Origin: a virus
Virus record (IMG/VR): IMGVR_UViG_3300044632_001319
Direction: 5' to 3' (one strand)
Length of the DNA: 64,000 nucleotides
Position numbers and translations under genes: made by a program. Positions 33,901 through 55,478 of the stretch are shown here, piece by piece. The notes beneath the pieces were generated by a model that worked only from the letters and a program-made list of their open reading frames with translations, did not search any database and was not told the DNA's origin. Numbering within the stretch: the stretch's first letter is position 1; the number at the start of each line of letters is the position of its first letter.

Positions 33901-36029
<2,129 letters not shown>

Positions 36030-38883: not shown

Positions 38884-39309
38884 ATGAATACTGTGAATTA
38901 TCAAGAAACGATTGTTATTCCAACACTTCAAAAGAAACTTCAAGAATTGCAGATAAACAATCTGTTTCTGGAAGTTTCTTTATTGGTTGAACAGGCAAAA
39001 ACAAAAGACATTGAAAATTATTACAAAAATCAAATTGGTCATGTTGATTCCATAAAAAATGAACTAGATCAAAAAAATAATAGAATAACTGAATTAAAGA
39101 CTCAAATCAGTTTAATTAATTCTGAAAACACCAGTAAAGATGCATTGATTCAAAAGTTAGAAAATGATTTGAAACGAGAAACGAGTGTTCGTGAAAGTAT
39201 TCATACTGAATATAACACTTTAAAGGGAAAGCACGATGTATTGGCAGCACAAGTCGAAGCATATCAAACTTCTATAAATAATAAGAAGACTAAAGATAAG
39301 CAAGCATAA
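38884..39309 (+). CDS. coiled-coil protein (possible fibre chaperone)
   Basis: Heptad-rich and located between fibre genes. Confidence 0.55.
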   Translation: MNTVNYQETIVIPTLQKKLQELQINNLFLEVSLLVEQAKTKDIENYYKNQIGHVDSIKNELDQKNNRITELKTQISLINSENTSKDALIQKLENDLKRETSVRESIHTEYNTLKGKHDVLAAQVEAYQTSINNKKTKDKQA

Positions 39310-39311
39310 TC

Positions 39312-40256
39312 ATGGCAAAAATTAAGATCAAGAACTCAGTAACAGCAGGATCTGCTCCATCTGGATTATCCTTTGGTGAAATGGCTGTTAACATTACTGA
39401 TAAAAAGATCTTTATTGGAAATGCTGTAGAGGGTGTAGTTACTTTACACGATCAGAATAATGTAGTTACTAGTATAGATGGTTCTACTGGTGCTATTCTA
39501 GGTGTTGCATATACACAAGCAGCAAATGTCTTTACATCGCTTCAAAGTTTTAATAATGGAATTTCAGCATCTGCTGGTTCTTCATTCAATAGTGCCACTG
39601 TTTTTATCTCAAATCTGACAGCAAATGTTGATCCATTACATGTCCAGCATTCTTCTACTGGTGCTTTGAAAGTATCAACATCTGGTCAGGCAAGAGCTGG
39701 TGCTATTAAACTTGGAAATTCAACAACTTCAACATTTAATACATTTATCAATAATAGTGATGGTACTCTAACCTTCTACAACGGAATCAGTTCTACTGGT
39801 TCCAACATGATAAACTTCAATACCACCACAATGAATATATCACCCACAATCGCGGGTGCAACATTCAGTGCATTGATAACATCTACTTCTGGTATTTCTG
39901 CATCTGGTGGTATTACAACTGCTTCATATCTTTATGCTGAAAATGGATTTAGAGTTGGTTCTGGAGCAATCAATTCACGAACTGGAACAACATACACTTT
40001 GCTCTCGACAGACAATGGTGAGATTATAGTTTGGAATACAAGTTCAGCAGGAACCTTGACCATTCCATCTGGTCTTCCTGTTGGATTCAATGCCACTTTG
40101 ATTCAAACAGGAACTGCTGCAATTGGCATCACTGGGTCTGGAACAACACTCAATAGTTTTGAAAACAAACTAAATACAGCAGGACAACATGCTGCGGTAA
40201 GTATCATTTCCTACAGCAGCAATGTATTCAATGTTGCTGGAGGACTAACAGGATGA
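39312..40256 (+). CDS. tail fibre protein
   Basis: IKIKNS..G..P..LSFGEMAVN N-terminus; TYTL..TDNG...LTIP.GLPVGF C-terminal domain. Confidence 0.72.
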   Translation: MAKIKIKNSVTAGSAPSGLSFGEMAVNITDKKIFIGNAVEGVVTLHDQNNVVTSIDGSTGAILGVAYTQAANVFTSLQSFNNGISASAGSSFNSATVFISNLTANVDPLHVQHSSTGALKVSTSGQARAGAIKLGNSTTSTFNTFINNSDGTLTFYNGISSTGSNMINFNTTTMNISPTIAGATFSALITSTSGISASGGITTASYLYAENGFRVGSGAINSRTGTTYTLLSTDNGEIIVWNTSSAGTLTIPSGLPVGFNATLIQTGTAAIGITGSGTTLNSFENKLNTAGQHAAVSIISYSSNVFNVAGGLTG

Positions 40257-43200
40257 TAATTCCAAGCTTCAAGGCTGGTATCTTAACTTTCATCAGGAAA
40301 ATTGTTGCTGCTATTCCAACAAATGGAAAATTGTTTATTTGGGGAAACAATAATGCTGGTCAAGTGGGAAATTCTACAACTGGGGTTGTGCCTGCTCAAA
40401 ATGTTTCTTCTCCTGTCCAAGTTGGAACTGCCACAGATTGGAATGTGGTTTCTTTTGGTAACGGTCATATTTTAGCAACAAAAACAGGAGGTAGTCTCTG
40501 GTCTTGGGGTTATGGAGGCTTCGGTCAATTGGGTTCTGGTACTACTACCAGCCTTTCATCTCCTGTCCAAGTTGGATCAGGTACGGATTGGGCAAGCGTT
40601 TCTGCTGGTGGAAGAGCATCATTTGCAATAAAAACCAATGGAACTCTTTGGGCGTGGGGTAGAAATACCTATGGTCAATTGGGTCTTGGCAATACTACCA
40701 GCCGTTCATCTCCTGTCCAAGTTGGAACAGGTACGGATTGGGCAAGCGTTTTTGTTGGAGAATATCATACAATTGCTTTAAAAACTACTGGAACTCTTTG
40801 GGGATGGGGTAGAAATAATGCTGGTCAATTGGGTCTTGGTGATACCACCAACCGATCATCTCCTGTCCAAGTTGGAACAGATACGAATTGGAGTAAAGTT
40901 TCATCTGGAAGACAACATACACTTGCTGTAAAATCAAATGGAACTCTTTGGGCATGGGGAAATAATGGTTATGGTCGTCTTGGACTCCGTGATACTAACA
41001 ACCGATCATCTCCTGTCCAAGTTGGAACAGATACGAATTGGTCGATTGTAGATGCAGGATACACTCACAGCCACGCAATAAGAACCACTGGAACTCTTTG
41101 GAGTTTTGGTGCTAATGTGCTAAGAGGTGAACTTGGAGTTGGAGATCAAGTAAATAGATCATCTCCTGTTCAAGTGGGAGCGAACACCGATTGGATAAAT
41201 GTTGGTGCTGGAAGGAATGCATCAATAGCAAGAAGATCAAATAAAACTCTTTGGGCATGGGGTTCAAGTGCATATGGTCTGTTGGTGTTTGAAAATGGAA
41301 GAGCATACAATTTACGCATAAGCAAACCAACACTAATATCAAATGATACATGGTCTTCTTTTACAGCAAAACGAGATCATACTTTTGGAATTAAGACTAC
41401 AGGAACTCTTTGGGCATGGGGAAAGAACTTTAGTGGGGTATTGGGAACTGGAAATGAAGTAAATCAGTCTTCTCCTGTCCAAATAGGCTCTGGTACGGAT
41501 TGGTCTTCTATTGGTTCTGCTGCAACAACAGACAGATTCACTGTTGCAATAAAAACTAATGGTTCTCTTTGGACTTGGGGATTAGGTACATATGGAAGAC
41601 TTGGTTCAGGTAACAATAATAGTAGATCATCTCCTGTTCAAGTGGGAACAGATACGAATTGGGCAAGCACTTCTTCTAGTCCATATCATACACTTGCTGT
41701 AAAAACAAATGGAACTCTATGGGCATGGGGAAGAGGTGCACATGGACAATTAGGGAATGATAGTTTTGTTACAAGGTCATCACCAGTACAGATAGGAAGT
41801 GATAGCAATTGGGCAAGCGTTTCTGCTGGTGGTCTAGCAACTAATGATGCTCAATCATTTGCAGTAAAAACCACTGGAACTCTTTGGGCATGGGGGAATA
41901 ATAATTATGGAAAACTTGGTTTAGGAACGCTTGCCCGTGATCGTACTAGTTCTCCTGTCCAAGTGGGAACAGATACGAATTGGTCTTTGGTAGGAGGAAA
42001 TGCGGGATTTGGAGGCTCAACAATAGCAGTGAAAACTACTGGAACACTTTGGGTTTGGGGAAGAAATAATAGTTATCATTTAGGTCTTATCTATAGTTAT
42101 GTATCACGGTTCTCTCCTACTCAACAGGGAACAGACAGTAATTGGGCTACGGCTTCAATGGGATATCTTGTTGCATCTGCAATAAGAACCACTGGAACTC
42201 TTTGGACATGGGGTAGTGGATCATATGGTTCTTTGGGAAATGGCACTGCTGTCACAGTATCATCTCCTGTTCAAGTGGGAACACAAACCGATTGGTCGAA
42301 AGTATCTGCTGCAAACAGAAATTGTGCGGCAATAAAAACCACTGGAACTCTTTGGACATGGGGTAGAAATACCTATGGTCAATTGGGTCTTGGCAATACT
42401 ACCAGCCGTTCATCTCCTGTCCAAGTTGGAACAGGTACTGATTGGGCTAGTGTATCTTGCGGCATTAGTAGTCATGTTTGTGCAGTTAAGACTGGAGGAA
42501 CCCTGTGGGCATGGGGTAGAAATAATTTTGGTCAATTGGGTCTTGGTGATACCACCAACCGATCATCTCCTGTTCAAGTGGGAACAGGTACGGATTGGGC
42601 TAGTGTTAACTGTAACTATGCCAGTACATTGGCAATAAAAACCAATGGAACTCTTTGGGCATGGGGACTAAATGCTCAATACCAATTGGGTCTTGGTAAT
42701 ACCACCAACCGATCATCTCCTGTTCAAGTGGGAACAGATACTAATTGGAGTAAAGTTTCCTCTGCAAGATTCCATACAATTGGGTTAAAAACCACAGGAA
42801 CCCTGTGGGCATGGGGAAGAAATACTGGCGGTGAATTGGGTCTTGGTAATGTTAGTAACCGATCTGCACCAACGCAAATTGGATCTAAAACAGACTGGAG
42901 CAATATTGGTGTTGGAACTAGTGCATCTTTTGGAATAAACACTTCAGGAAAACTTTATGCTTTTGGTTTGAATTCTGGTTACGGAAGATTAGGAATACAA
43001 ACTTTTAATTATTACAATTCACCCAAACAAGTAGGAACTGCTACAGATTGGTCAAGTGTATCAACTGCTGGAAATTCCACGATGGCTAGGAAAACCACTG
43101 GAACCCTGTGGGGGTGGGGTAGGAATAATAATGGTCAATTGGGTCTTGGTGATGCCACCACTCGATCATCTCCTGTTCAAGTGGGAACAGGTACTGATTG

Positions 43201-43558
43201 GAGTAAAGTTTCAATCGGAAGATATGACACAAAAGCAATTAAAACTGGTGGAACTCTTTGGGCATGGGGATTTAATTCATACGGTGGATTGGGTACTAGT
43301 GATACCACCAACCGATCATCTCCTGTTCAAGTGGGAAGTGCTACGAATTGGAACGACATAAGTAGTGCGTATAATCACAACATGGCAAAAAATACATCTA
43401 ATTTGTTGTATGGTATGGGAAGAAACGGATTTTCCGAAATTATTAGATTTACAAACCATGTATCTTCTCCTGTCCAAGTTGGCACATCTTCAAATTGGAG
43501 CACCGTGGTTATTTCTAGAGGTGCGGGAGATAATTGTGCTGCAATAGAAACTACATAG
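40253..43558 (+). CDS. RCC1/BLIP-II repeat beta-propeller protein
   Basis: About 20 repeats of GTLWAWG.N..GQLGLG....RSSPVQVGT.TDW. Confidence 0.92.
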   Translation: MIIPSFKAGILTFIRKIVAAIPTNGKLFIWGNNNAGQVGNSTTGVVPAQNVSSPVQVGTATDWNVVSFGNGHILATKTGGSLWSWGYGGFGQLGSGTTTSLSSPVQVGSGTDWASVSAGGRASFAIKTNGTLWAWGRNTYGQLGLGNTTSRSSPVQVGTGTDWASVFVGEYHTIALKTTGTLWGWGRNNAGQLGLGDTTNRSSPVQVGTDTNWSKVSSGRQHTLAVKSNGTLWAWGNNGYGRLGLRDTNNRSSPVQVGTDTNWSIVDAGYTHSHAIRTTGTLWSFGANVLRGELGVGDQVNRSSPVQVGANTDWINVGAGRNASIARRSNKTLWAWGSSAYGLLVFENGRAYNLRISKPTLISNDTWSSFTAKRDHTFGIKTTGTLWAWGKNFSGVLGTGNEVNQSSPVQIGSGTDWSSIGSAATTDRFTVAIKTNGSLWTWGLGTYGRLGSGNNNSRSSPVQVGTDTNWASTSSSPYHTLAVKTNGTLWAWGRGAHGQLGNDSFVTRSSPVQIGSDSNWASVSAGGLATNDAQSFAVKTTGTLWAWGNNNYGKLGLGTLARDRTSSPVQVGTDTNWSLVGGNAGFGGSTIAVKTTGTLWVWGRNNSYHLGLIYSYVSRFSPTQQGTDSNWATASMGYLVASAIRTTGTLWTWGSGSYGSLGNGTAVTVSSPVQVGTQTDWSKVSAANRNCAAIKTTGTLWTWGRNTYGQLGLGNTTSRSSPVQVGTGTDWASVSCGISSHVCAVKTGGTLWAWGRNNFGQLGLGDTTNRSSPVQVGTGTDWASVNCNYASTLAIKTNGTLWAWGLNAQYQLGLGNTTNRSSPVQVGTDTNWSKVSSARFHTIGLKTTGTLWAWGRNTGGELGLGNVSNRSAPTQIGSKTDWSNIGVGTSASFGINTSGKLYAFGLNSGYGRLGIQTFNYYNSPKQVGTATDWSSVSTAGNSTMARKTTGTLWGWGRNNNGQLGLGDATTRSSPVQVGTGTDWSKVSIGRYDTKAIKTGGTLWAWGFNSYGGLGTSDTTNRSSPVQVGSATNWNDISSAYNHNMAKNTSNLLYGMGRNGFSEIIRFTNHVSSPVQVGTSSNWSTVVISRGAGDNCAAIETT
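40655..42438 (+). repeat. identical 80-bp direct repeat (40655-40734 and 42359-42438) within RCC1 repeats
   Basis: tggggtagaaatacctatggtcaattgggtcttggc...gttggaacaggtac occurs twice exactly. Confidence 0.85.
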
Positions 43559-43582
43559 TTATATGACAAGGAGTTTTATATT

Positions 43583-45373
43583 ATGATTTATTTTCTCAGT
43601 GGTCTTCCCCGTAGTGGTTCAACCGTTCTCTCTTCCCTTCTTAATCAGCACCCTCAAGTCCATTCAACACCAACAAGCGGTCTTATAGACATTCTTGGCT
43701 CTGTATGCACAACATGGGAAAGTTCACCAACCACTGTTGCACAGGGTGGAGAGAAGGAAGAAGCCTATCGTATGCTTCGATCCGTCATTGATGCAAAGTA
43801 TAAGGATGTGAAGAAATCAGTAATCATTGACAAGAGCAGGGGATGGGTGAATCCACAGATAATGGAAACAATGACAAAGGTTCTTGGTCATCATCCAAAG
43901 ATTATAGCAACCGTTCGATCTACTGCCGACTGTGCTGCATCATTTGTAAGAGTTGCAAAACCAAACGATGTTTCAGAGTTTCTTCGCTCTTCGCAATTGA
44001 TTCAACATCTCAAATCATCATATGCTGAACTGAAAAATGGATATGACTCTGCGCCAAATAATATATTATTCATTGACTATGATGATCTTATTCAGTCTCC
44101 ACAGGAACAACTGAATCTAATTCATAAGTTTCTTGGACTTGATCCATTTGAATATGATTTTGGAAATATCGACACAAAGGTTGTGGCAGAAAAAGATGAT
44201 GCAGCATGGGGAATTCCAAATCTTCATACGATATCACCACGATTAGGATATCAACATAATCAAGATTCAAGAAAAATTCTAGCACAGCACTTCGACAGTT
44301 ACGACCAACCAAAATTCTGGAAGGGAGAGGTTCGTGACTATAAGAAAAAAAAGATCGACCACTCCGTTGCACTTTCGATGAAAGGTGAGTTTGGGGAGTC
44401 ATATAAACTTCTTTGTGAAGCACAGAAGGAGAATCCTCTATGTAACAAGATTGCCTTCAACATGGGTTGGTATGCCTTGCGTCAGGGAAGATTACAAGAG
44501 GGAATGGAGGGTTTGGCTAGGGGTCGATATGAGAACTGTTTTGGCAATCCAAGACCACCAGTACCAACACCAATGTGGGATGGGAAGAGTATGGGAACAA
44601 TCCTATATTACCTTGAAGGTGGAATAGGAGATCAGATTCATGCTTTAAAATACATCAAAGACATGAATAGACGAGGATGTGATATTATTGTTGCTTGTTC
44701 TGCTGAATTGTTTCCGATTGTTAAATGCTGCATAGGTGTAAAGATGATTATAGAACACTCCGCTGCTGGTGGTGTATACCATGATTTTTGGGTTCCAGCC
44801 ATGTCAGTTCTCATACCGTTGGGTTATGAATATAAAGATATTAATGGTTCTCCTTATATTCCAAAAACAAATAGCCCAAAGAACAAGCGACCCGTGATAG
44901 GAGTTCGTTGGCAGGGAAATCCAAAGTTCGAACATGAGCAAAATCGTAGATTTCCACTGAAGTCTTTCTTTGATGCTCTAAAGAATATTGATGCTGATTT
45001 TATTTGTTTACAAAGAGATGCTGGAGAGGAAGATTGTCCAGAATTCATCAAGAAAGTTCCCCTAAATAATTGGGAACAAACACGAGATGCTATATCTGGC
45101 TGCGATCTTGTGATATCATCATGCACCAGTGTTGCACATCTTGCAGGAGCAATGGGAGTTCCAACATGGATAATTGTTCCTGTCTTGAACTATTACATAT
45201 GGTCTGTGCCTGGTGACAAATCACCTTACTATGATTCAGTAAAGTTGTTCAGGCAAAAAAAGTTTGGATGTTGGAAGCATCCTATATCGGAGTTGAAGAA
45301 AAATTTAGAGGGTCAGTTTGGAATTGTAAAGAAATCAAAATGGAGTAAACTATGCCAAAGCATATTAGGGTAG
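43583..45373 (+). CDS. sulfotransferase + TPR-like + GT9-like fusion
   Basis: SGLPRSGST PAPS loop and DKSRGW; then EGGIGDQI, WQGNP, DLVISSCTSVAHLAGAMG.PTW. Confidence 0.82.
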   Translation: MIYFLSGLPRSGSTVLSSLLNQHPQVHSTPTSGLIDILGSVCTTWESSPTTVAQGGEKEEAYRMLRSVIDAKYKDVKKSVIIDKSRGWVNPQIMETMTKVLGHHPKIIATVRSTADCAASFVRVAKPNDVSEFLRSSQLIQHLKSSYAELKNGYDSAPNNILFIDYDDLIQSPQEQLNLIHKFLGLDPFEYDFGNIDTKVVAEKDDAAWGIPNLHTISPRLGYQHNQDSRKILAQHFDSYDQPKFWKGEVRDYKKKKIDHSVALSMKGEFGESYKLLCEAQKENPLCNKIAFNMGWYALRQGRLQEGMEGLARGRYENCFGNPRPPVPTPMWDGKSMGTILYYLEGGIGDQIHALKYIKDMNRRGCDIIVACSAELFPIVKCCIGVKMIIEHSAAGGVYHDFWVPAMSVLIPLGYEYKDINGSPYIPKTNSPKNKRPVIGVRWQGNPKFEHEQNRRFPLKSFFDALKNIDADFICLQRDAGEEDCPEFIKKVPLNNWEQTRDAISGCDLVISSCTSVAHLAGAMGVPTWIIVPVLNYYIWSVPGDKSPYYDSVKLFRQKKFGCWKHPISELKKNLEGQFGIVKKSKWSKLCQSILG

Positions 45374-45759
45374 AAAACGATGAAGTAGTGGAATGTCTTG
45401 ATTATCTTCCAGAGAATGCAACTGGTGATTGGAGAGATGCTATAGAAATTGAGCCTACTCTTATTGCTGGAAGGCAAATAACAGGAGCACATTCCTTTGA
45501 TCTTACAAAAACTCCTGTTGAAATTGTATGGTCTGTTATAGATTTGACAATTGAAGATCGCAAATCTATGTTGCTACAACAATTGAATTCAGACTCCTAT
45601 GAAATAGTACATGATGAATTAATAAAGGAGTTTCAAGGTGAGAGTTCTGACTTCGCTCTTGTGCAGGGAGCAATCTCGGCATATAGAAGCAAAAGAACAG
45701 AAATTGAAAATCTCACAACTCACGAAGAGATAGATGCTTTTATTTCAACAAACGGATAA
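45352..45759 (+). CDS. hypothetical protein (fibre assembly-like)
   Basis: 135 aa ORF with GGAG RBS and C-terminal IENLTTHEEIDA. Confidence 0.55.
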   Translation: MPKHIRVENDEVVECLDYLPENATGDWRDAIEIEPTLIAGRQITGAHSFDLTKTPVEIVWSVIDLTIEDRKSMLLQQLNSDSYEIVHDELIKEFQGESSDFALVQGAISAYRSKRTEIENLTTHEEIDAFISTNG

Positions 45760-45762
45760 AAT

Positions 45763-47142
45763 ATGAGAATCGTGTTTTCAATTATTCATAATGGACTTCA
45801 TCATCTTCATCACAACACACAATACGAAAATATACTTAAATCATGCGACAAATGGATAGTTGTCGAAGGTGCATCACGCTCAAACGGCAGTACCAAATGG
45901 TGTAACGAGTTTCCAGATGATCTTCACCTCAATGGAGGAAGTATTGATGGAACACGGGAGTTTCTTCAATTTCTATCCAAAGAAACGGATAAGTTGATCT
46001 ATATTCCTTCGAATGGATTTTGGCAATCTAAAGATCATCAAGTCAACAGAGCCATAGAAGAAGTTAAGAAAATCACAAATCGTTGCTGGCTATGGGAAAT
46101 CGATATAGACGAGCAATGGGAATTAGAACAAATGGACGCTGCTGAAAAAGAGTTGTTTGACAGCGGTTCGAAGGCAGGATGTTTCCGCGCTCAATGCTTT
46201 ATTGGAAGGAATCTTCGTGCGATAGGAGATTGGGGGGAGGCATATACCAGTGGGTATATTCGTTTATGGAAGTGGGAAGGTGAGAAGTTTATCTGCCACG
46301 AACCACCGATCATAGAGGGGCAGATGGGCATAGAGCCAAGGATGCTCTCTCAGGTATTCCGACACTACAATTACTACTTTGATAAAGATGTAATATTCAA
46401 GGATAAGTGGTATGGTGGTCACGAAAAAATTTACGAAAGATGGAAACTTATCAATTCACTTGATAAAAGATTCTTTCCAATGCACATATCAAATCTGATA
46501 TCTGGTCCGTGGGGAAGATCTAATAGTTCCATCATTTATGTTGAACCACCACATCCTAAAAAACTAGTACAAATTGGAGCAAACAAGGGTTATGATCATG
46601 TTTTTGAAAAAGTAAAGAATCGAAAATATGAATGCTTGTTAGTGGAACCAAATCCATATTCGCTCGAACATCTGCGGGAATGCTACGCTGATTTTGATAA
46701 CTGTCATTTTGACGAATGTGCAATAACCACATACGATGGTAAAATAGAAATGCATTTTAACGATATCGACTCTGGGGATTCATCACATAGCTCAATTTTG
46801 CTAGATCATGTTGTTAAGCATAATAACAAACTATCCAATATAACAAGTCAGAATGTTTCGTGCATGAAGCTAGAGACGTTGCTGGAAAAGTATGGATGGC
46901 ACACCAGCGAGATTGATTGGCTGTATATTGACGCAGAAGGTCATGATTGTGATATAATACTTTCAGTTGATTTCAGTAAGTTAAATATAAAGAACATATT
47001 CTTTGAGACGGTTCATTCTGACGGTGTTTTTACTCAGGGTAATAAACTTCAGAAGACAATCAAATACCTAAACTCATTTAATTATCTAATGAACTTTAAG
47101 CATATTACAGACAATTCGAATCTTGCTTTTACTAGACTATGA
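45763..47142 (+). CDS. GT-A-like domain + FkbM methyltransferase fusion
   Basis: VVEGA, SIDGT, IDIDEQW; then QIGANKG, VEP, IDAEGHD. Confidence 0.72.
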   Translation: MRIVFSIIHNGLHHLHHNTQYENILKSCDKWIVVEGASRSNGSTKWCNEFPDDLHLNGGSIDGTREFLQFLSKETDKLIYIPSNGFWQSKDHQVNRAIEEVKKITNRCWLWEIDIDEQWELEQMDAAEKELFDSGSKAGCFRAQCFIGRNLRAIGDWGEAYTSGYIRLWKWEGEKFICHEPPIIEGQMGIEPRMLSQVFRHYNYYFDKDVIFKDKWYGGHEKIYERWKLINSLDKRFFPMHISNLISGPWGRSNSSIIYVEPPHPKKLVQIGANKGYDHVFEKVKNRKYECLLVEPNPYSLEHLRECYADFDNCHFDECAITTYDGKIEMHFNDIDSGDSSHSSILLDHVVKHNNKLSNITSQNVSCMKLETLLEKYGWHTSEIDWLYIDAEGHDCDIILSVDFSKLNIKNIFFETVHSDGVFTQGNKLQKTIKYLNSFNYLMNFKHITDNSNLAFTRL

Positions 47143-47873
47143 AAGACATTCTTGTTATTGGTGATGCTTGTCGTGATATATTCGTATATTGCGACTCAAA
47201 CAGATTGTGTCCAGATGTACCCGTTCCAGTATTGAATGTCCTGGACTCAACGGAAAATCCTGGTATGGCAAAAAATGTGCAGAGGAATATTATTTCTCTA
47301 GGATATTCGTGTGATGCTATTGTGAATAAGAATTGGTACAATGTCACCAAGACAAGATACGTTCACAAGAAAAGCAATCATACTTTTTTTCGAGTTGATT
47401 CGGTGGAAGGCAAAGAGTCCATTAACATAAAGGAATTATCATACTCCTATAAAATCATCGTGATATCTGATTATGACAAGGGATTCATCTCTGAATATGA
47501 TATTGAAACCATCTGTGCAAATCACGATACGGTGTTTTTAGATACCAAGAAAAAACTTGGATCCTGGGCAAATAATGCAAAGTATATAAAGATCAACGAC
47601 ACGGAGTTTAGAAATTCATATGATGCAATCACACCTACCATGAAGAATAAGATAATTCATACTTTGGGTAGCAATGGATGTGAATATAGAGATAAACATT
47701 ATCCAGTGAATAAAGTAGATGTCCAGGATGTTTCTGGTGCTGGTGATACTTTTTTAGCAGGATTAGTTGTTGAATATTTCAAAACAAGTGATATAGTATC
47801 ATCCATTGAATTTGCAAACAAGTGTGCATCCAATGTTGTCAAGTATCGTGGAGTATCGGTCCCACAATTATGA
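47139..47873 (+). CDS. hldA: heptose-7-phosphate kinase (HldE domain I-like, PfkB family)
   Basis: VIGD..RD, RLCPDVPVPV, GMAKNV, SDYDKG, DVSGAGDTF. Confidence 0.85.
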   Translation: MKDILVIGDACRDIFVYCDSNRLCPDVPVPVLNVLDSTENPGMAKNVQRNIISLGYSCDAIVNKNWYNVTKTRYVHKKSNHTFFRVDSVEGKESINIKELSYSYKIIVISDYDKGFISEYDIETICANHDTVFLDTKKKLGSWANNAKYIKINDTEFRNSYDAITPTMKNKIIHTLGSNGCEYRDKHYPVNKVDVQDVSGAGDTFLAGLVVEYFKTSDIVSSIEFANKCASNVVKYRGVSVPQL

Positions 47874-48268
47874 AGACTGTTTTCACTAATGGTGTTTTTG
47901 ATATAATTCATAGGGGTCATGTGGAACTTCTTGAGTTTTGCAAGACACAAGGAGACTATCTTATCGTTGCTATAGATTCCGATGAAAGAGTCAAGAAGAC
48001 AAAAGGAATGAGTAGACCAATCAACACTGTCGAGGATAGGAAGAAGATACTACAATCCATAAGATTTGTAGACGAAGTGGTAGTATTCAACACACACGAA
48101 GAATTGAAAGAGTTTCATGCTTTATTGAAACCCGATGTTGTGGTGAAAGGTTCAGATTGGAATTTAGATTTCATACGTCAGACTGATGCAATATGTGATA
48201 ATTCTAAATTAATTTTATTTAATAGACTTGAAAACTATTCATCTACTAGTATAATAGAAAGATTATGA
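47870..48268 (+). CDS. hldC: heptose-1-phosphate nucleotidyltransferase (HldE domain II-like)
   Basis: VFTNGVFDIIHRGH, KG..RPIN, VKGSDW, YSSTSII. Confidence 0.85.
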   Translation: MKTVFTNGVFDIIHRGHVELLEFCKTQGDYLIVAIDSDERVKKTKGMSRPINTVEDRKKILQSIRFVDEVVVFNTHEELKEFHALLKPDVVVKGSDWNLDFIRQTDAICDNSKLILFNRLENYSSTSIIERL

Positions 48269-49131
48269 TATTAGTAACTGGTTCTTCTGGGTTTATAGGA
48301 AGCAGAATGCTTCTTTATCTCAATTCTATTGGAATTGAAGATATTATCCTATGTGATTTTCAAGAAAATTCTTATCGTTACAACAATAAAGCAAAATATT
48401 TCAAGTCTTATGATGTGCTTGATGATGACTTGTTCAATCAGGAAATCACATCAGTTTTTCATTTTGGAGCAATATCAGATACGCTAGAAACCAACATCGA
48501 TGTAATACAAAAATATAATATCGATTTTACCAAAAAGTTATCTAATTTTTGCCGAACAAAGAAACTTCCATTGTTTTTTGCATCTACTGCTGCAATATAT
48601 GGAAATGGATCTGGTCCATTGAATCTCTATGCCATGTCCAAGTTAGTGTCAGAAAAAGACATCTCCGATCATGGTGTTTGTTTTCGGTTGTTCAATGTCT
48701 ATGGTCCGAATGAATATCATAAAAGAGATATGGCATCTGTGATGTTCAAATGGTTCAACCAATTGAAGGATGGTGAAAGACTCCATATCTTCGCGAACTC
48801 TCACACATACAATAGAGATTTTATCTACGTCGATGATGTTTGTCGAGTATTTTTCAATGCATATAAGAATCCAATTCCTGGGGTGTATGACTTGGGATCT
48901 GGAATTCAATCGTCGTTTGATGACGTAGCAGATAAATGCATTGCTGCATTTGGTGCAGGGTCCAAGATTGAAATTGCAATGCCAGAAAAGTTGAAGAAGC
49001 AATATCAGACAAATACAATTGCTGATATCGGCAAGGCAATGGATAATGGATGGATAGATACTACTGAGACATTGGTTAGTGGAATAAATATTTATTATGA
49101 GAAACTAAAAAATGAAACCAAAAATAGTTGA
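48265..49131 (+). CDS. hldD: ADP-L-glycero-D-manno-heptose 6-epimerase-like
   Basis: VTGSSGFIGS, HFGAISDT, PLNLYAMSK, FNVYGPNEYHK..MASV, RDFIYVDDV, YQ..T.AD. Confidence 0.85.
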   Translation: MILVTGSSGFIGSRMLLYLNSIGIEDIILCDFQENSYRYNNKAKYFKSYDVLDDDLFNQEITSVFHFGAISDTLETNIDVIQKYNIDFTKKLSNFCRTKKLPLFFASTAAIYGNGSGPLNLYAMSKLVSEKDISDHGVCFRLFNVYGPNEYHKRDMASVMFKWFNQLKDGERLHIFANSHTYNRDFIYVDDVCRVFFNAYKNPIPGVYDLGSGIQSSFDDVADKCIAAFGAGSKIEIAMPEKLKKQYQTNTIADIGKAMDNGWIDTTETLVSGINIYYEKLKNETKNS

Positions 49132-49459
49132 AAAGACATGGGGTCGTGAAATTGTATTCGCAAATAACCCAAAGTATTGTGGTAAATTGCTGGTGTTTGA
49201 TTGTGGGAAACATTCGAGTCTTCATTATCATCTGATGAAAGATGAAAGCTGGTATATCCAAAGTGGCAAAATCGAATTGCATTGGATTGAACCAGTAAAC
49301 GCAACTAAACACATTGAGGTGCTTGGTGCTGGAGAAGTGATTCATCTCGCTCCAGGATATCCACACCAAGTACATGCTCTAGAGGATACGATAATTTTTG
49401 AAGTTTCTACGCAACATTTTGATGCAGACACATATAGAATAGAACCATCATCCAAATGA
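49112..49459 (+). CDS. cupin (sugar isomerase-like)
   Basis: VEKTWGRE, YCGKLL, SLHYH..KDES, EVST.HFD.D.YR. Confidence 0.75.
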   Translation: MKPKIVEKTWGREIVFANNPKYCGKLLVFDCGKHSSLHYHLMKDESWYIQSGKIELHWIEPVNATKHIEVLGAGEVIHLAPGYPHQVHALEDTIIFEVSTQHFDADTYRIEPSSK

Positions 49460-50265
49460 GATATGCAATAGATATAGATAATACGCTTGTAAAAACCAAC
49501 GGATCTGATTACAGTAACTCAGTTCCGATTCAAAGTATGATCGATCGTGTAAATAGATTATATGATGATGGAAACACAGTTTATCTTTTTACTGCGCGCG
49601 GATCTGCTTCTGGTAAAGATCATTCGCAACTTACACATGATCAGATGAAAAGATTCGGAGTAAAGTACGATAAGATAATATTTGGAAAACCAGATGTCGA
49701 TCTTTTTATAGACGATAAGGCATTATCAGTAAAGGAATGGAATCGTAAAATGATTTTAAAAATATACAAAATTTATCCAGATGTGCCAGATGTAAAATAC
49801 GGAACAAAGAATTCCGCGTGTTTCGACATCGCAGCACATTTTCATTATCAGCATTCGTTCAAGACATTTTCCAAAGATAATAAAGAAATAATAGTTCTTG
49901 GTTCTCAAGACGAAAATGGTCGAGGATATATTGACGTACCATCTGAGTGGAGAATACTTGTTCCGACTGGAATAATTCTCGACATTCCAGAACAGCATTG
50001 TGTAAAGATCTATCCTCGCTCTGGTCTTTCCACAAAGAAAGGATTGAATCTCATTAATTGTGTTGGTATAATCGACTCAGATTATGTCGAACAACTGATG
50101 ATTCCAGTCTATAATAATTCTCAAGAACGTCTACGAATTTATTCTGGTGATCGCATAGCACAAGGTGAATTGGTTTACCAACCCCAGGCAGATCTTTCAT
50201 ACATAAATGAAAGACCATCTCGTAAAAGTGATCGTGATGGCGGGTTTGGATCTACAGGTGTATAA
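49456..50265 (+). CDS. dut: HAD phosphatase fused to trimeric dUTPase
   Basis: DIDNT, TARG, GKP, IDDK; then PTG, PRSGL, GIIDSDY, GDRIAQ, R.GGFGSTG. Confidence 0.85.
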   Translation: MRYAIDIDNTLVKTNGSDYSNSVPIQSMIDRVNRLYDDGNTVYLFTARGSASGKDHSQLTHDQMKRFGVKYDKIIFGKPDVDLFIDDKALSVKEWNRKMILKIYKIYPDVPDVKYGTKNSACFDIAAHFHYQHSFKTFSKDNKEIIVLGSQDENGRGYIDVPSEWRILVPTGIILDIPEQHCVKIYPRSGLSTKKGLNLINCVGIIDSDYVEQLMIPVYNNSQERLRIYSGDRIAQGELVYQPQADLSYINERPSRKSDRDGGFGSTGV

Positions 50266-51602
50266 TGAACAAAACAAAAATTGATGATGTGGTAGACTTC
50301 CTCAAGAAGTTTGCTGGTGATGACGGTATTCCAGTTATTAATGGAACCGATTGGGAAGAGATGAATAATCTCTTTAAGAAAGAAGAAATTAAAGAGGGAA
50401 TGGCAGAATATGTTTTAAAGTATTCTGTTTTATTTCCTTTTAGACATATTCCAATCGAAGATGTAGAAAAGAAATTTAAAGAACTTCGTGCTGCTCCACA
50501 TATGGAGTTCATTATGCGTGATGCTGGAACTGTTACTGAAAAATACACTGATTACAAATATCCATACTCAACACATGGTAAGTTTGTAATCTCTTATGGT
50601 CATTATTTTAATGACATCAGTAATTATTATCAGCAACGAAATCGCTATGACTGTGGTTCACATGGATTTGTTTCTCCAAATGAATACTGGTATTCTCCAG
50701 ATCTGCTTAAGAAGATGAACTGGACTTTCTGGAGAATGGAAGACCGTGGAATCAATCATGGAAAGATTCGCGGATCCTTCAGACTTGGGGCATATGTTGC
50801 TACACAATTCAAACCACAGGTAGCAAAGACCATCTTTGATTTTGTACAATCAAAGGTTAAGACCAGAAAGTTTTCTATTCTTGACTTCAGCATGGGGTGG
50901 GGTGATCGTCTTGCTGGATTCTATGCGTCAAGAGCAACGCACTATCTTGGAACAGATCCAAATCCAAGTGTGTTCCGAGTATACAAGGACCAATGTATCG
51001 CGTATGAGAAGATAATCTCTGGCAGAGATCCAATTATTACAGACTTTCAAAAGGAAGTAAACGGTCACATCTATGATGCGTTTAGATGCATTGGAGCATC
51101 AGGCAAAGAAATAATTGTATACAATGCTCCTGCTGAAGATATACTGGATGTTATCAAAGCAAACAAATATGATTGTATCTTTACATCACCACCATACTTC
51201 TCAACAGAATTGTATGATGAGGGTGGAGATGACTGGAAGCAATCATGGTTCCGTTATTCGGAGTATGATAAGTGGTGGAATAAGTTTTACTCACCAGTTA
51301 TGAAAGCATGTTTCGAATCATTGGAAGATCACGGATCGATGATGATCAATATCATGGATCCTCATGTGTATGGTAAACGATACAATACATGTGATCAGAT
51401 GGTAGATTACATCAAGGGTCTTGGTGGAGTGTTCGACGGGCAGATTGGTATGAGAATCAAGCAACGACCAAAGAACATTGATTCTGCTGAACTTAAGAAA
51501 TATCTTGTCACAACTTTTATTGAAAACATTTGGTGTTTTTCAAAGAATGGATTTGACTTATCTCCAGGATTTGCTACACTAGAGGGACTGTTCGGAGACT
51601 AA
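50265..51602 (+). CDS. DNA amino-methyltransferase-like protein
   Basis: LDFSMGWGDRL (motif I) and FTSPPYF (motif IV). Confidence 0.78.
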   Translation: MNKTKIDDVVDFLKKFAGDDGIPVINGTDWEEMNNLFKKEEIKEGMAEYVLKYSVLFPFRHIPIEDVEKKFKELRAAPHMEFIMRDAGTVTEKYTDYKYPYSTHGKFVISYGHYFNDISNYYQQRNRYDCGSHGFVSPNEYWYSPDLLKKMNWTFWRMEDRGINHGKIRGSFRLGAYVATQFKPQVAKTIFDFVQSKVKTRKFSILDFSMGWGDRLAGFYASRATHYLGTDPNPSVFRVYKDQCIAYEKIISGRDPIITDFQKEVNGHIYDAFRCIGASGKEIIVYNAPAEDILDVIKANKYDCIFTSPPYFSTELYDEGGDDWKQSWFRYSEYDKWWNKFYSPVMKACFESLEDHGSMMINIMDPHVYGKRYNTCDQMVDYIKGLGGVFDGQIGMRIKQRPKNIDSAELKKYLVTTFIENIWCFSKNGFDLSPGFATLEGLFGD

Positions 51603-51603
51603 T

Positions 51604-51918
51604 ATGACCAAGGATGAACTTTTTAAATTACACGAAGAAATGTCTGCCGCTGCGCTTCTTCTCATGAAGAAAAAGAATGCAGATTATGCTGGTGGGGTGT
51701 CTGATCCCTTTGCTAATTTTCGACGCGCTGAAGCGTTAGGTGTTTGTTCTACTGAGCAAGCATTTCTTGTCAGGATGACTGATAAGATGTCTCGTCTTTC
51801 TTCCTTTGCAAAGAAAGGCACATTAGCAGTAGAAGATGAATCTGTACACGATACACTTCTTGATCTGATCAACTATTCGGTTCTTCTTTCCGCCTACATC
51901 AAGTCAAACGTAAAATGA
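51604..51918 (+). CDS. DUF1599 / nucleotide-modification-associated (MazG-like) protein
   Basis: KKNADY, DPFANF, RMTDKMSRL, DESVHDTLLDLINY. Confidence 0.75.
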   Translation: MTKDELFKLHEEMSAAALLLMKKKNADYAGGVSDPFANFRRAEALGVCSTEQAFLVRMTDKMSRLSSFAKKGTLAVEDESVHDTLLDLINYSVLLSAYIKSNVK

Positions 51919-53393
51919 ATTTTTACACAAACGTTTTTTATAATTTTGATTCCATTCTTTATGCTGAGAAAGAGAATGGTGTAACAAAATACAGAAGTCA
52001 AAAATATGTTCCAAAGGTTTATCTCCCATCTAAAAAGAAAACTGATATTGTTTCGATTCATGGTGAATCTCTGGCAGAAATGACATTTGATTCATATCAA
52101 TCCTACAAGGAATTCAATGACAAGTATTCTGATGTTCCTGGGTTTGAAATTCATGGTGACATCCAAACAGAATATCAATTTATTAATTCCAAGTATGGTA
52201 CTGATGTACAATACGATTTTTCTAAAATCGATGTAATGTACATAGATATCGAAACGACCTCGGAAAATGGTTGGCCTTCGATTGAGGATCCCCGTGAAAA
52301 AATCAATGTGATTACTCTGCTGTCAACGAGAACAGGAAGAGCGACTTTCTGTCTTGGAAAAGTAAAGTTGGCAGATATGTCTCGTATATACGAATACGAT
52401 GACGAAGAAGAAATGCTCACGGCATTTCTTGATTATTTTGCAGCAAATTATCCTGATGTTGTTTCGGGATGGAATATACGATTCTTCGATTTCCCATATC
52501 TCATCAGAAGAATCAAGCATTTGATGGGATTCAAAGCAGCAAAGAAACTTTCTCCATGGGGAATCGTCAAGGAGAAGTTTATTACTAGGAATGGAAACGA
52601 AGAACTGATGTATGACATAATCGGCATTTCTATGCTTGATTATTATGAAGTCTACAAGACATTCACATACACGAATCAGGAATCATATTCATTGAATCAT
52701 ATTTCTTATGTAGAACTGGGTGAGAAAAAACTTGGTTATGAAGAGTATGAAAGTTTGACTGAATTCTATCGCAAGGACTTTTCTAAGTTTGTTCAGTATA
52801 ACATTCGAGATGTTGAACTTGTTCAGAAGTTGGAAGAGAAACTAAAATTAATTGAACTGGCAATTGCTCTGGCATATTCAGCAGGAGTAAATTATCAGGA
52901 TGTCTTCTCCCAAGTTCGTACATGGGATGTAATCATTTACAACACACTTAGCAACAAAGGAATTGCAATTCCACCAAAGAAAAAGGGAAGAAAAGACGAG
53001 CAATATGCTGGTGGTTATGTAAAAGAACCACAAGTAGGTATGCACAAGTGGGTAGTATCCTTTGACTTGAATTCACTGTATCCGCATCTCATCATGCAGT
53101 ACAATATCTCACCAGAAACAATCACAAAGGAAAGTGTTCGTGGTGTGGTATCACCCGAAGGCGTACTAAAAAGAGGTTCAGTGACAATGGGTGTTCTTGA
53201 AGATAACAAGAAGAGAAATGTATCAACTGCTGCTAATGGAACTACCTATAGAAAAGATGTGCGTGGATTCTTGCCAGAACTTATGGATCAAATGTATAAA
53301 GATCGTAAAATGTTCAAGAACAAAATGATTGATGCCAAAAAGAATCTGGAAGATATCAACGCAGAAATGAAGCGAAGGGGCTTGACAAAGTAA
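51915..53393 (+). CDS. gp43A: DNA polymerase B, N-terminal part (exonuclease + motif A)
   Basis: DIET, GWNIRFFD, YNIRDV, SFDLNSLYPH; ends in the first fingers helix. Confidence 0.95.
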   Translation: MNFYTNVFYNFDSILYAEKENGVTKYRSQKYVPKVYLPSKKKTDIVSIHGESLAEMTFDSYQSYKEFNDKYSDVPGFEIHGDIQTEYQFINSKYGTDVQYDFSKIDVMYIDIETTSENGWPSIEDPREKINVITLLSTRTGRATFCLGKVKLADMSRIYEYDDEEEMLTAFLDYFAANYPDVVSGWNIRFFDFPYLIRRIKHLMGFKAAKKLSPWGIVKEKFITRNGNEELMYDIIGISMLDYYEVYKTFTYTNQESYSLNHISYVELGEKKLGYEEYESLTEFYRKDFSKFVQYNIRDVELVQKLEEKLKLIELAIALAYSAGVNYQDVFSQVRTWDVIIYNTLSNKGIAIPPKKKGRKDEQYAGGYVKEPQVGMHKWVVSFDLNSLYPHLIMQYNISPETITKESVRGVVSPEGVLKRGSVTMGVLEDNKKRNVSTAANGTTYRKDVRGFLPELMDQMYKDRKMFKNKMIDAKKNLEDINAEMKRRGLTK

Positions 53394-53415: not shown

Positions 53416-53955
53416 ATGGAAACGAGGAACGTGATTGACCACTACCATTATTGGAAGCATGAAGCGATCATCGCAGACCTTGATGCAAAGCGGAATAATT
53501 TTACCGTTGTTTGTAGCAATCTTTATAATGACTTCAATATTGCTACAGTTATTCGTAACGCGAATGCGTTTCTTTCTAAGCAAGTAATCCTTTATGGAGC
53601 AAAGCAGTATGATCGCCGTGGCACTGTAGGCACACATCATTACACACATTTCAAGCACGCCAAGACCTTTGTTGAACTGGAAGATCAGATCAAGATAATT
53701 CGTGGATCTTACGGAACAGTCAAAGTAATTGGCATAGATAATGTGCCAGGTGCTACGGCAATTGACGAGTTTGTATGGGACTCAAATACACATTATGTTC
53801 TAGCGTTTGGTCAGGAACAAGTTGGTCTACCCGCAGAAATCCTTGACATCTGCGACCAAGTATTGTACATTAAACAGTATGGAAGTGTCAGGAGTCTGAA
53901 TGTAGGAACCGCGAGTGGTATCGCAATGTACGCACTCGCAAGTAATGTGTTTTAA
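53416..53955 (+). CDS. SpoU/TrmH-family RNA 2'-O-methyltransferase
   Basis: N..NIATVIRNANAF, FGQEQVGL, I.QYGSVRSLNVGTASGIAMY SPOUT motifs. Confidence 0.9.
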   Translation: METRNVIDHYHYWKHEAIIADLDAKRNNFTVVCSNLYNDFNIATVIRNANAFLSKQVILYGAKQYDRRGTVGTHHYTHFKHAKTFVELEDQIKIIRGSYGTVKVIGIDNVPGATAIDEFVWDSNTHYVLAFGQEQVGLPAEILDICDQVLYIKQYGSVRSLNVGTASGIAMYALASNVF

Positions 53956-54117: not shown

Positions 54118-54199
54118 ACCAATGTGGCGGAACTGGCAGACGCGGTGGATTCAAAATCCATTGCCTTATGGCATGTGGGTTCGATTCCCACCTTTGGTA
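54118..54199 (+). tRNA. tRNA-Leu(CAA)
   Basis: GTGGA-TTCAAAA-TCCAT anticodon arm, variable arm, T arm, discriminator A. Confidence 0.92.
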
Positions 54200-54219
54200 T
54201 TATGAAACTAGAAGACACA

Positions 54220-54852
54220 ATGAAGACACTAATCGCAACAGCATTTATCGCAACGGCAGCACACGCAAATCTCACACTCACATTTGAGGATCTGCCTGAG
54301 CCTACAGTACCTTCCTCAAACGTTGAGTTCGTGGTTGCAAGTCCTATCGGAGATTACCAAGGATTTCAGTTCTTGAGCAATCTCGTCGTTCCTGCATCGA
54401 ATCCCGAATGGCAACCATTCTCAGGACGATGGGCATACTACGACATCAAGGATGTGGACTTCGGCGGCTACGACGATGGGCTCGTCGGTGACCGTGCGCT
54501 ATTCACCCCCTATGGGTCGGACGCTGCCAATGGGTTTAGAATCAGTCGAGACGAACTTTGGAGGTTTGTCGGTGCGGACATCACCGCTGCATGGATTGAC
54601 CTTGACTTGACTCTCACAGGATATCGGGATGGTTCGGTTGTATGGAGCCGCACTCTGTCGATCCCTTCTATGGTGAGAACAAGGCTAGAGTTCGATGAAG
54701 TAGCCATTGATACCTTGAAGATCTCAGGGTTTTCTCCTAACTCGCCCATCAACCATTTCATCCTCGACAATTTCTCTTACGAGATCGTTCCCACACCATC
54801 GGCACTTGCTCTGCTTGCGGTTGCTGGTGTGATCCGAAGGCGGCGACGATAA
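54220..54852 (+). CDS. PEP-CTERM-type exported surface protein
   Basis: Signal peptide MKTLIATAFIATAAHA, LTFEDL start, C-terminal VPTPSALALLAVAGVIRRRRR. Confidence 0.85.
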   Translation: MKTLIATAFIATAAHANLTLTFEDLPEPTVPSSNVEFVVASPIGDYQGFQFLSNLVVPASNPEWQPFSGRWAYYDIKDVDFGGYDDGLVGDRALFTPYGSDAANGFRISRDELWRFVGADITAAWIDLDLTLTGYRDGSVVWSRTLSIPSMVRTRLEFDEVAIDTLKISGFSPNSPINHFILDNFSYEIVPTPSALALLAVAGVIRRRRR

Positions 54853-55118: not shown

Positions 55119-55478
55119 ATGGAATGTATTACTAAATTATTAACGCTTCAGAATCAACTTCGTATTCATCATTGGCAAACCCCATCCTATGCCGAGCACA
55201 AGGCATTAGGTAAAGCCTACGAGGGATTAGACGATCTTATCGATACCTTTGTCGAAACATACATGGGAAAGTATGGAAAAGATACTGAGCAACACAGAGG
55301 CATTGAACTTAAGGGATACGAAACTGCACATCCAATGCCAGTTATAAAATATTTTGAAGATTATTTGACCAACGAACTTCCATCCGATTTGTCAGAAGAG
55401 GATACAGATCTTTTGAATATTCGAGATGAAATGCTAGGTTTACTCAATCAGACAAAGTATCTGTTGACACTTCATTGA
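55119..55478 (+). CDS. ferritin/Dps-like protein (DUF5856-like)
   Basis: HHWQT.SYAEHKAL...Y..L..LID.FVE.YMGKYG...DLLNIRDEM....NQTKYLLTL. Confidence 0.78.
   Translation: MECITKLLTLQNQLRIHHWQTPSYAEHKALGKAYEGLDDLIDTFVETYMGKYGKDTEQHRGIELKGYETAHPMPVIKYFEDYLTNELPSDLSEEDTDLLNIRDEMLGLLNQTKYLLTLH

Follow-up and report, generated by a model that had tools for sequence, protein, structure and literature searches.

Does a phage that encodes a heptose pathway and a glycosyltransferase beside its fibre genes use them to decorate its own particle? The question is raised by a stretch of 64,000 nucleotides (nt) from IMG/VR virus record IMGVR_UViG_3300044632_001319 (hereafter, the window), which represents 64 kb of the genome of an uncultured T4-like myovirus from lake water. 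Directly behind the fibre genes, the window encodes an RCC1 propeller protein, a fusion of a sulfotransferase, helical repeats and a GT-B glycosyltransferase, a GT-A/FkbM fusion, and five enzymes resembling those of ADP-heptose synthesis. The contiguous run from RCC1 to a HAD phosphatase described in the original prediction was borne out: all of its genes lie on the plus strand, the cassette and the heptose genes form one block, and the domain calls hold. The genes listed there were all found, and a conserved 135-amino-acid (aa) gene at 45352-45759 had been omitted. We read the block as two modules lying side by side at the end of the fibre region, an ADP-heptose route and an RCC1-modifying cassette, and assign this reading a probability of about 45%. 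Because the propeller protein, the putative modifying enzyme and the heptose pathway adjoin the fibre genes, the phage probably uses them to modify attachment proteins of its own.

That T4-like phages from oceans and lakes carry glycan genes in their fibre regions has been known since 2010, and these genes have been treated as possible "stuffer" or as modifiers of host lipopolysaccharide (LPS). The core heptose genes are an already known phage gene set. New here are the cupin and HAD substitutions, the RCC1/sulfotransferase-TPR-GT9/chaperone-like cassette as a mobile unit, and its split form in cultured cyanophages. Should the RCC1 proteins turn out to be heptosylated or sulfated, neither modification would have an earlier example on a phage particle, and the finding would bear on the host range, adsorption and recognition of environmental phages.

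A predicted five-step route to ADP-heptose

The first pathway gene (47139-47873) encodes a short PfkB kinase of 244 aa, which resembles HldE domain I and matches phrog_8133. TIGR02198 was its best family by 20 orders of magnitude (107 bits; cut-off, 345); the PVPV and D-V-S-G-A-G-D motifs are kept, and approximately 26 residues are deleted compared with the Escherichia coli protein. The adjacent gene (47870-48268) encodes an HldE domain II-like nucleotidyltransferase, the best family of which was TIGR02199 (128 bits; cut-off, 181.5). It retains the HxGH motif and is 39% identical to residues 341-471 of E. coli HldE (domain II), and its start is most likely the ATG at 47870, which forms an ATGA overlap with the kinase stop. 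The third product is an HldD-like SDR epimerase (48265-49131) with TIGR02197 as its best family (219 bits; cut-off, 274.6); it is 34% identical to E. coli HldD when the two are aligned end to end. Its GxxGxxG and YxxxK motifs were aligned, together with an HK pair matching K178 of E. coli HldD, which we take to be the second catalytic lysine. Based on these sequence matches, the kinase and the nucleotidyltransferase are predicted to be a heptose-7-phosphate 1-kinase and a heptose-1-phosphate adenylyltransferase, respectively.

GmhA and canonical GmhB, which had been reported as missing, were likewise not found in the 64-kb window by BLAST (E > 0.3). In addition, no SIS-type GmhA (PF13580) was detected in the complete genomes of S-SM2 and P-TIM68 or in two related contigs. 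A 192-aa open reading frame (ORF) of phage S-SRM01 (W03:195331-195444, L034) matched SIS_2 weakly and only in part (18 bits, E 3.4e-4); this ORF has the length of GmhA, and S-SRM01 carries neither the kinase nor the nucleotidyltransferase.

The gene at 49112-49459 encodes a cupin of 115 aa (T4-GC 307) that matches Lyx_isomer slightly below the cut-off (20.4 bits; cut-off, 20.8) and in which H38, H40, E45 and H85, candidates for the metal-binding His/Glu residues, are conserved. Its family comprises 3502 representatives at 50% identity. Lyx_isomer (PF07385, D-lyxose isomerase) and MannoseP_isomer (PF01050, the C-terminal domain of mannose-6-phosphate isomerase) were the most frequent specific cupin families among its relatives (28 and 27 out of 42, respectively), and the family profile matched the structure of a D-lyxose isomerase (2y0o, 7.8e-6). 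Mannose-6-phosphate and lyxose isomerases interconvert a ketose and a manno- or lyxo-configured aldose, the same chemistry that GmhA performs on a seven-carbon substrate. Because of its resemblance to these isomerases, the cupin most likely replaces GmhA as a sedoheptulose-7-phosphate isomerase. The PHROG name of the cupin, "cysteine dioxygenase", was rejected as a mis-annotation.

The last gene (49456-50265) encodes a protein of 269 aa. Its residues 1-107 form a capless HAD phosphatase domain (49456-49776; TIGR01689 EcbF-BcbF, 3.6e-8; HAD-IIIA, 5.8e-4; phrog_1238) with visible DxDxT, T, K and DD motifs, and this is fused to a dUTPase domain (49852-50262; PF00692, 63.8 bits; TIGR00576, 92.9 bits) in which all five dUTPase motifs look intact. 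The HAD phosphatase of the original prediction was thus confirmed as a domain, but not as a free-standing protein ending at 49750, since it is part of a fusion that ends at 50265. The fusion is taken as real because it recurs in three related contigs (L004 and L005, 306 aa each; L006, 272 aa); in a fourth (L003) HAD and dUTPase are encoded separately, with several genes between them. It looks like the junction of the sugar module and the replication module, and the dUTPase part belongs to the latter, not to the sugar pathway. The HAD domain showed no significant similarity to E. coli GmhB, its family being EcbF/BcbF-like small phosphatases, and it is predicted to act as a heptose-1,7-bisphosphate 7-phosphatase in place of GmhB. 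The PHROG name of the HAD, "phosphoheptose isomerase", was likewise rejected.

The earlier proposals that the cupin supplies an isomerase step and that the HAD stands in for GmhB gained independent support from natural fusions. The cupin is joined to a complete HldE in P0335 (NF008454, 410 bits), to HldE-I in P0307 (TIGR02198, 328 bits), to HldE-II in P0298 and P0341, and, in P0242, to a HAD of the same EcbF/BcbF-type subfamily as that of the window; P0242 has four members from several contigs. The use of a phosphomannose isomerase-like cupin and a capless HAD for GmhA and GmhB would represent a non-orthologous displacement, found also in fusions to HldE in cellular genomes. The literature search returned no paper linking a cupin with GmhA or ADP-heptose.

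Together, the five products of this module (module B, 47139-49776) could provide a self-sufficient route to ADP-L-glycero-beta-D-manno-heptose or a close isomer. The cupin would convert sedoheptulose-7-phosphate to the 7-phosphate of D-glycero-D-manno-heptose, the short PfkB kinase would produce the 1,7-bisphosphate, the capless HAD would take off the 7-phosphate, the HldE-II-like enzyme would adenylylate the product, and the HldD-like SDR would epimerise C6. The number and order of the steps would be the same as in the bacterial pathway (GmhA, HldE or HldA plus HldC, GmhB, and HldD), and the phage kinase, adenylyltransferase and epimerase are 25%, 39% and 34% identical to their E. coli counterparts with the catalytic motifs kept. 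On the other hand, the phage set differs from the bacterial one in having a cupin for the SIS-fold GmhA and an EcbF/BcbF-type HAD-dUTPase for GmhB, and in a kinase that is approximately 70 residues shorter. Judging from the family assignments and motifs, a sugar nucleotide of the ADP-heptose type is very probably produced by the phage, in agreement with the NDP-heptose originally proposed, and the five genes are likely to constitute a complete ADP-heptose route.

Compared with the S-SM2 set, the five genes show 33-61% identity, and their synteny extends to many phages. The same five families constitute the cyanomyovirus "LPS gene" set T4-GC 304, 305, 306, 307 and 308 (P-SSM2, S-SM2, S-SSM7 and P-TIM68), in which the cupin and the HAD bear the same misleading names. 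Sullivan et al. 2010 (PMC3037559) described T4-GC 304, 305, 307 and 308, with 306, as co-occurring "LPS genes" of unknown function. In cyanophages, the heptose modules sit in glycan islands far from replication genes. The set in the window differs in its position behind the RCC1/sulfotransferase-GT9 cassette, which the cyanophages named above lack.

The RCC1 protein and its putative modifying enzymes

The RCC1 gene (40253-43558) encodes a protein of 1101 aa that falls in phrog_4219. Its membership in the family was established by PF25390 (982 bits, in 7 stretches) and by 19 repeats of PF00415, and the protein consists of three tandem seven-bladed propellers with 21 blades. An S-S-P-V-Q-V/I-G-type motif is present on 19 of the blades, with a period of about 50 residues, and is kept in single-propeller RCC1 relatives. 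Mass spectrometry of purified coliphage W70 virions revealed RCC1 proteins of phrog_4219 (PMC11370258). The window protein is therefore regarded as a candidate virion- or fibre-associated protein and a candidate modification acceptor.

The gene downstream of it (43583-45373) encodes the fusion enzyme of 596 aa, the structure of which was modelled with AlphaFold (AF2) using 30 homologues in the alignment (pLDDT 88.9). Residues 1-252 (43583-44338) form a sulfotransferase domain; Sulfotransfer_3 (PF13469) covers residues 4-187 with 61.5 bits against a cut-off of 27. The fold of this domain best matched the protein-tyrosine sulfotransferases (TPST; Z 18.1-18.8), ahead of the CurM sulfotransferase (16.3) and heparan 3-O-sulfotransferases (14.6). 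In the alignment with TPST1/2, 237 residues were aligned, and the loop that binds 3'-phosphoadenosine 5'-phosphosulfate (PAPS) and the 3'-phosphate Arg/Ser are kept. The PAPS loop, GxPRSGST, is nearly invariant: G7, P9, R10, S11, G12, S13, T14, R112 and S120 are at least 90% conserved, and the residues of the loop and R112/S120 align with the TPST and CurM motifs. Nevertheless, the identity to TPST is only 13-16%, and in the hidden Markov model alignment no Glu falls where TPST has its catalytic Glu; a sugar is an equally possible acceptor.

Residues 257-317 (44351-44533) form a TPR-like helical-repeat linker with four helices in the AF2 secondary structure. The C-terminal domain, to which the original prediction ascribed a GT-B fold, indeed adopts this fold in the model (residues 338-580; 44594-45322), with GT9 as the nearest family: the best GT-B matches were WaaC (Z 16.6; root-mean-square deviation 3.2, 228 residues aligned), WaaF (16.2), 3tov (15.8) and TibC (15.1), all of which are GT9. 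An E-G-G-x-G-D sequence following GT-B strand 1 is invariant in the 30 sequences. Counted from the start of the structural alignment (model residue 338 = WaaC residue 1), D350 would fall at the position of the catalytic Asp of WaaC, D13. When the alignment of the fusion enzyme was compared with E. coli WaaC by hhalign, a local match of 38 columns with a probability of 1% was obtained, which is too weak for residue claims, and a profile of the enzyme matched only sulfotransferases among PDB sequences. By fold search, protein-modifying enzymes are among the nearest solved folds of both catalytic domains (TPST and TibC, respectively). Helical repeats fused to a GT-B domain are the usual layout of protein glycosyltransferases such as OGT and FlmG, and all characterised GT9-fold heptosyltransferases, to our knowledge, take ADP-heptose as donor. 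More than 1000 metagenome relatives share the fusion architecture, none of them in a cultured phage; stand-alone homologues occur in S-SRM01 and a Manatee Spring phage, where their annotation is TPR protein.

A possible parallel is provided by TibC/AAH and their substrates TibA/AIDA-I (BAHT family, PMC4358343), in which ADP-heptose is transferred to Ser of a repetitive, beta-rich adhesin encoded next door; the fusion enzyme shares with TibC a GT9-related GT-B fold. However, it is not a BAHT member. The N-terminal beta-barrel and four-Cys iron finger that define the family (PMC4358343) are absent from it: the model contains no N-terminal beta-barrel, and no CxxC pair was found in residues 338-596. 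In contrast to TibC, its N-terminus consists of a sulfotransferase and helical repeats, and the putative substrate is a beta-propeller rather than a beta-helix.

The 135-aa gene (s135, 45352-45759) shares 22 nt with the 3' end of the fusion gene and follows it in 21 of the 28 viral loci that were compared. Its Atlas structure matches, DUF4376 (TM 0.69) and PF16778 Phage_tail_APC (TM 0.60), are leads only; tail-assembly chaperone families were its sole annotated look-alikes. Downstream of s135 lies the gene for the GT-A/FkbM fusion (45763-47142, 459 aa). Its residues 1-250 (45763-46512) form a GT2-like GT-A domain with an invariant D-x-D-E at residues 114-117 and with ThuS (Z 14.2) and heparosan synthase (13.4) as fold matches. 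The second domain (46555-47139) belongs to the FkbM family of S-adenosylmethionine methyltransferases, as indicated by PF05050 (57.6 bits) and TIGR01444 (45.1 bits), and its fold matched 2py6 and COMT. The alignment profile of the GT-A/FkbM protein had no match among PDB sequences, the assignment having come from the fold search.

We suggest that module A (40253-45759) is a fibre-accessory cassette, in which an RCC1 propeller on or with the virion would be served by a dedicated cytoplasmic modifying enzyme. The helical repeats would hold the protein substrate, the GT9-fold domain would add a sugar, here most plausibly heptose from the neighbouring module, and the TPST-like domain would add sulfate from host PAPS; the small chaperone-like s135 would complete the cassette, and the GT-A/FkbM fusion might attach another sugar and O-methylate it. 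The S-S-P loop is an obvious candidate for the acceptor, given the analogous action of TibC on the TibA repeats (PMC4358343). In its boldest form, which we consider doubtful, the proposal is that in aquatic phages of several lineages the fusion enzyme heptosylates and sulfates the S-S-P loop on each RCC1 blade, giving a sulfated glyco-propeller as a hitherto unknown kind of virion adhesin, and that the phage brings a cupin-based ADP-heptose pathway of its own to hosts that lack the sugar. A complex prediction for the third RCC1 propeller, the TPR-GT9 part and s135 scored 0.13 against a mark of 0.32, which speaks neither for nor against binding.

Mycobacteriophages reportedly decorate their own virion proteins by means of phage glycosyltransferases (Freeman et al. 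2023). The enzymes, sugars, hosts and targets of that system are said to be other than those considered here, with no heptose or sulfate known. This work on mycobacteriophage-encoded virion glycosylation is cited in PMC12801897 and PMC12619734.

Distribution of the two modules and weighing of the alternatives

The neighbourhoods of the fusion enzyme were counted in 28 IMG/VR loci, and those of the kinase in the best 80 of 421 viral contigs with kinase relatives; the kinase was chosen as the query, the cupin alignment being too diverse for a pattern scan. RCC1, the (sulfotransferase-)TPR-GT9-like gene and s135 were found as a set in approximately 35 phage contigs from different lineages, in every case surrounded by fibre or virion genes; contigs of the SU10-adaptor type are among them. 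RCC1 adjoins the GT9-like gene in 27 of the 28 viral loci, in seven of nine contigs from metagenome-assembled genomes (MAGs), and in phages BUCT-ZZ01 and S-SRM01. Ser/Thr-rich fibres in general, which had been proposed as a target, were not supported, since it is the RCC1 gene that constantly accompanies the GT9-like enzyme. Across phage lineages, this enzyme is tied to RCC1 genes with or without the sulfotransferase.

Two cultured cyanophages carry the RCC1/GT9-like pair, which makes the proposal testable, and one host, Synechococcus elongatus PCC 7942, is genetically tractable. In BUCT-ZZ01, the order is tail fibre, an RCC1-like protein (annotated as BNR, 40% identical to the window protein) and the TPR-GT9-like gene. 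In S-SRM01, RCC1 gp337 is followed by TPR-GT9-like gp338, and RCC1 gp344 by a stand-alone sulfotransferase, gp345; both pairs lie behind baseplate and long-fibre genes.

A scan of genome contigs with the TPR-GT9 part yielded the nine MAG contigs (L047-L055), which have phage-like content and were assigned to unrelated phyla (Bdellovibrionaceae, Saccharibacteria, Phycisphaerales, Betaproteobacteria and Methylobacter). As phage DNA that was probably mis-binned, they offer no host clue and no cellular homologue context. One of them, L054 (contig JALHMX010000003.1, 187,562 bp), could represent a phage genome that is nearly complete.

The GT9-like enzyme and the heptose genes had been proposed as parts of one system, and this did not hold as an obligate pairing. 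Heptose genes were present in four of the 28 fusion loci, all of them closest relatives, and in one MAG contig; conversely, the RCC1/fusion cassette was found in only six of the 80 kinase loci. In that MAG contig (L048), the cassette is accompanied by genes for nucleotidyltransferase, cupin and kinase that are arranged differently, which constitutes an independent second co-occurrence. Modules A and B were thus found together only in the window lineage and this one other contig. Most of the other fusion loci come from another type of phage, which encodes an endolysin and a virion structural protein besides an SU10-type adaptor. The complete genomes of S-SM2 and P-TIM68 contain the heptose genes and no GT9-like gene, whereas those of S-SRM01 and BUCT-ZZ01 contain the GT9-like gene and no heptose genes. 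The folds, the motifs, the linkage of the genes and the domain fusions are observed, and every substrate is a prediction. Because complete isolate genomes carry one module or the other, heptose as the donor of the GT9-like domain and the RCC1 protein (perhaps its S-S-P loop) as the acceptor can only be inferred, and the acceptor might equally be the host envelope or another molecule.

In distant loci, GT25 and GT32 transferases lie 3' of the cassette together with a homologue of adenosine 5'-phosphosulfate (APS) kinase (30% identical to E. coli CysC). The presence of this homologue beside the cassette argues that sulfation is real chemistry. It is a P-loop kinase located between GT25 and GT32 (L009:14135-14893, L016:12847-13278, L015 and L027). 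The long form, of 252 aa, is fused to a nicotinamide mononucleotide (NMN)-adenylyltransferase-like domain and may be a phage PAPS supply. Its identification as a full PAPS synthase was rejected: only the N-terminal half is APS-kinase-like, and the C-terminal half has a fold of the NMN-adenylyltransferase type.

The companions of the kinase in the 80 loci were genes for an alcohol-dehydrogenase-like protein (69), a transketolase-like protein (61), the nucleotidyltransferase (53), the epimerase (53), the cupin (46) and the HAD (43). The adjacency of the transketolase-like gene in 61 loci was counted in favour of the pathway assignment. The zinc alcohol-dehydrogenase-like and "transketolase central region" genes lie 5' of the kinase (61-69 of the 80 loci, L057-L136), often with a gene for a 270-aa protein; an example from S-SM2 is L001:5976-9010.

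Several observations weigh against the two-module reading. The scores of the kinase, the nucleotidyltransferase and the epimerase all lie under the NCBIfam equivalog cut-offs, and several of the cupin fusions are singleton clusters that could be gene-call mergers. Pfam Glyco_transf_9 (PF01075) had no match at E <= 0.01 in the fusion enzyme, nor in its S-SRM01 and BUCT-ZZ01 homologues, and the weak hhalign match sets a nearly invariant Cys (C514) at WaaC D261. No PAPS-synthesis gene was found in the 64-kb window. The dehydrogenase, transketolase and 270-aa genes of the common kinase loci are missing from the window. Because most kinase loci carry such genes, what phages usually make may be a heptose that has been modified or extended, and not plain heptose. 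The independent distribution of modules A and B implies that the GT9-like enzyme does not generally require heptose as its donor, or else that hosts supply it. Published readings favour modification of host LPS (PMC3037559, PMC7029224).

The last point leads to the view that the GT9-like/sulfotransferase enzyme, the GT-A/FkbM enzyme and the heptose pathway change the host's LPS core or some other glycan on its surface during infection and so block superinfection or the re-adsorption of progeny to debris, RCC1 being adjacent as a receptor-binding protein whose receptor is masked. Such remodelling of the envelope is how the cyanophage "LPS genes" (PMC3037559) and the glycosyltransferases of the pelagimyophage host-recognition cluster (PMC7029224) have been read. 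It would also accord with WaaC and WaaF as the top GT-B matches, with the action of characterised GT9 enzymes outside BAHT on the LPS inner core, and with the LPS-type GT25 and GT32 transferases that flank the cassette in distant loci. However, the layout of helical repeats plus GT-B is that generally known from protein glycosyltransferases, the sulfotransferase is closest to the protein-tyrosine type by about 4 Z units over carbohydrate sulfotransferases, and S-SRM01 pairs each enzyme half with an RCC1 paralogue of its own. A chaperone-like gene is coupled to the enzyme gene, and the apparent late-operon placement would leave little time for exporting modified LPS. We therefore consider envelope remodelling rather unlikely.

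The independent distribution could also mean that the two modules are unlinked neighbours, brought together by accident in a hypervariable fibre region. The heptose would then feed the GT-A/FkbM enzyme or glycosyltransferases elsewhere, such as those of an island at 19-32 kb, and the GT9-like domain would use another donor of the host. The double dissociation in complete genomes and metagenomic loci is what this view predicts; the GT-A domain, moreover, co-occurs with the heptose module only in the window lineage, directly 5' of the kinase, and the Cys at the WaaC D261 position hints, through a weak alignment, at a changed sugar pocket. Against it stand the rearranged second co-occurrence in L048 and the use of ADP-heptose by every characterised GT9-fold heptosyltransferase (as is generally known, and for TibC, PMC4358343). 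In addition, the hosts of the other phages may supply ADP-heptose, GT9 and rfaE-like matches having been found in S. elongatus among the control genomes. A chance neighbourhood of this kind appears unlikely. Glycosylation of phage DNA bases by the sugar nucleotide, finally, would be in line with the adjoining replication module, with the fusion of the HAD to dUTPase, with the PF01555-like and PF07659 proteins that follow, and with the general existence of phage GT-B enzymes that glycosylate DNA. On the other hand, no hydroxymethylase was seen in the window, the presence of ThyX and of a complete dUTPase suggests ordinary thymidine, L003 encodes HAD and dUTPase as two genes, the cyanophage module lies in glycan islands distant from replication genes, and the enzymes travel with RCC1 and fibre genes. 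This explanation is highly improbable.

Transcription layout and neighbouring genes

The interval 38884-53393 is on the plus strand throughout, with intergenic gaps of 24 nt or less and overlaps of 1-22 nt at most junctions. A T4-type late-promoter-like sequence, TATAAATA, is located at 39273-39280 on the plus strand, 32 nt before the ATG at 39312. This site and the tight translational coupling from 39312 onward were counted in favour of the two-module reading. The window contains six copies of TATAAATA (at 1912, 27781, 32109, 39273, 55093 and 63308), all of them on the plus strand and 20-35 nt 5' of the starts of the sheath gene, the 27809 gene, the tail fibre gene, the 39312 gene, the DUF5856 gene and the 63333 gene, respectively. 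Although this placement fits T4-type late promoters, a count of six equals the chance expectation. Scans of sigma-70 promoters and terminators gave matches not above the shuffled expectation.

The gene at 39312-40256 encodes a Ser/Thr-rich protein of 314 aa that could not be assigned to a known family; the stop codon of this gene and the start codon of RCC1 share the sequence ATGA, and the gene is also found 5' of RCC1 in the related loci L003 and L006. The fibre genes that precede the block include those for a PHROG tail-fibre protein at 32133 and a collagen-repeat protein at 33901, and the 555-aa protein at 37198 has a domain common to annotated tail fibres of the cyanophages BUCT-ZZ01 and S-SRM01. 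The T4-like gene content of the window comprises terminase, sheath, portal, a gp23-like head protein, UvsW, gp46, the clamp and the clamp loader. Among the replication and nucleotide genes are those for UvsX, gp41, primase, ThyX, ribonucleotide reductase and a split family-B DNA polymerase.

The interval between the dUTPase and the polymerase (50265-51918) encodes a DUF1599 "nucleotide modification associated" protein and a protein of 445 aa with a weak C-terminal match to N6/N4 DNA methylases (PF01555, 30.5 bits). The polymerase is encoded by two ORFs, 51915-53393 and 55498-56643, which are approximately 2.1 kb apart. A SPOUT methylase gene (53416-53955), an unassigned ORF at 54124-54852 and the DUF5856 gene (55119-55478) lie between them.

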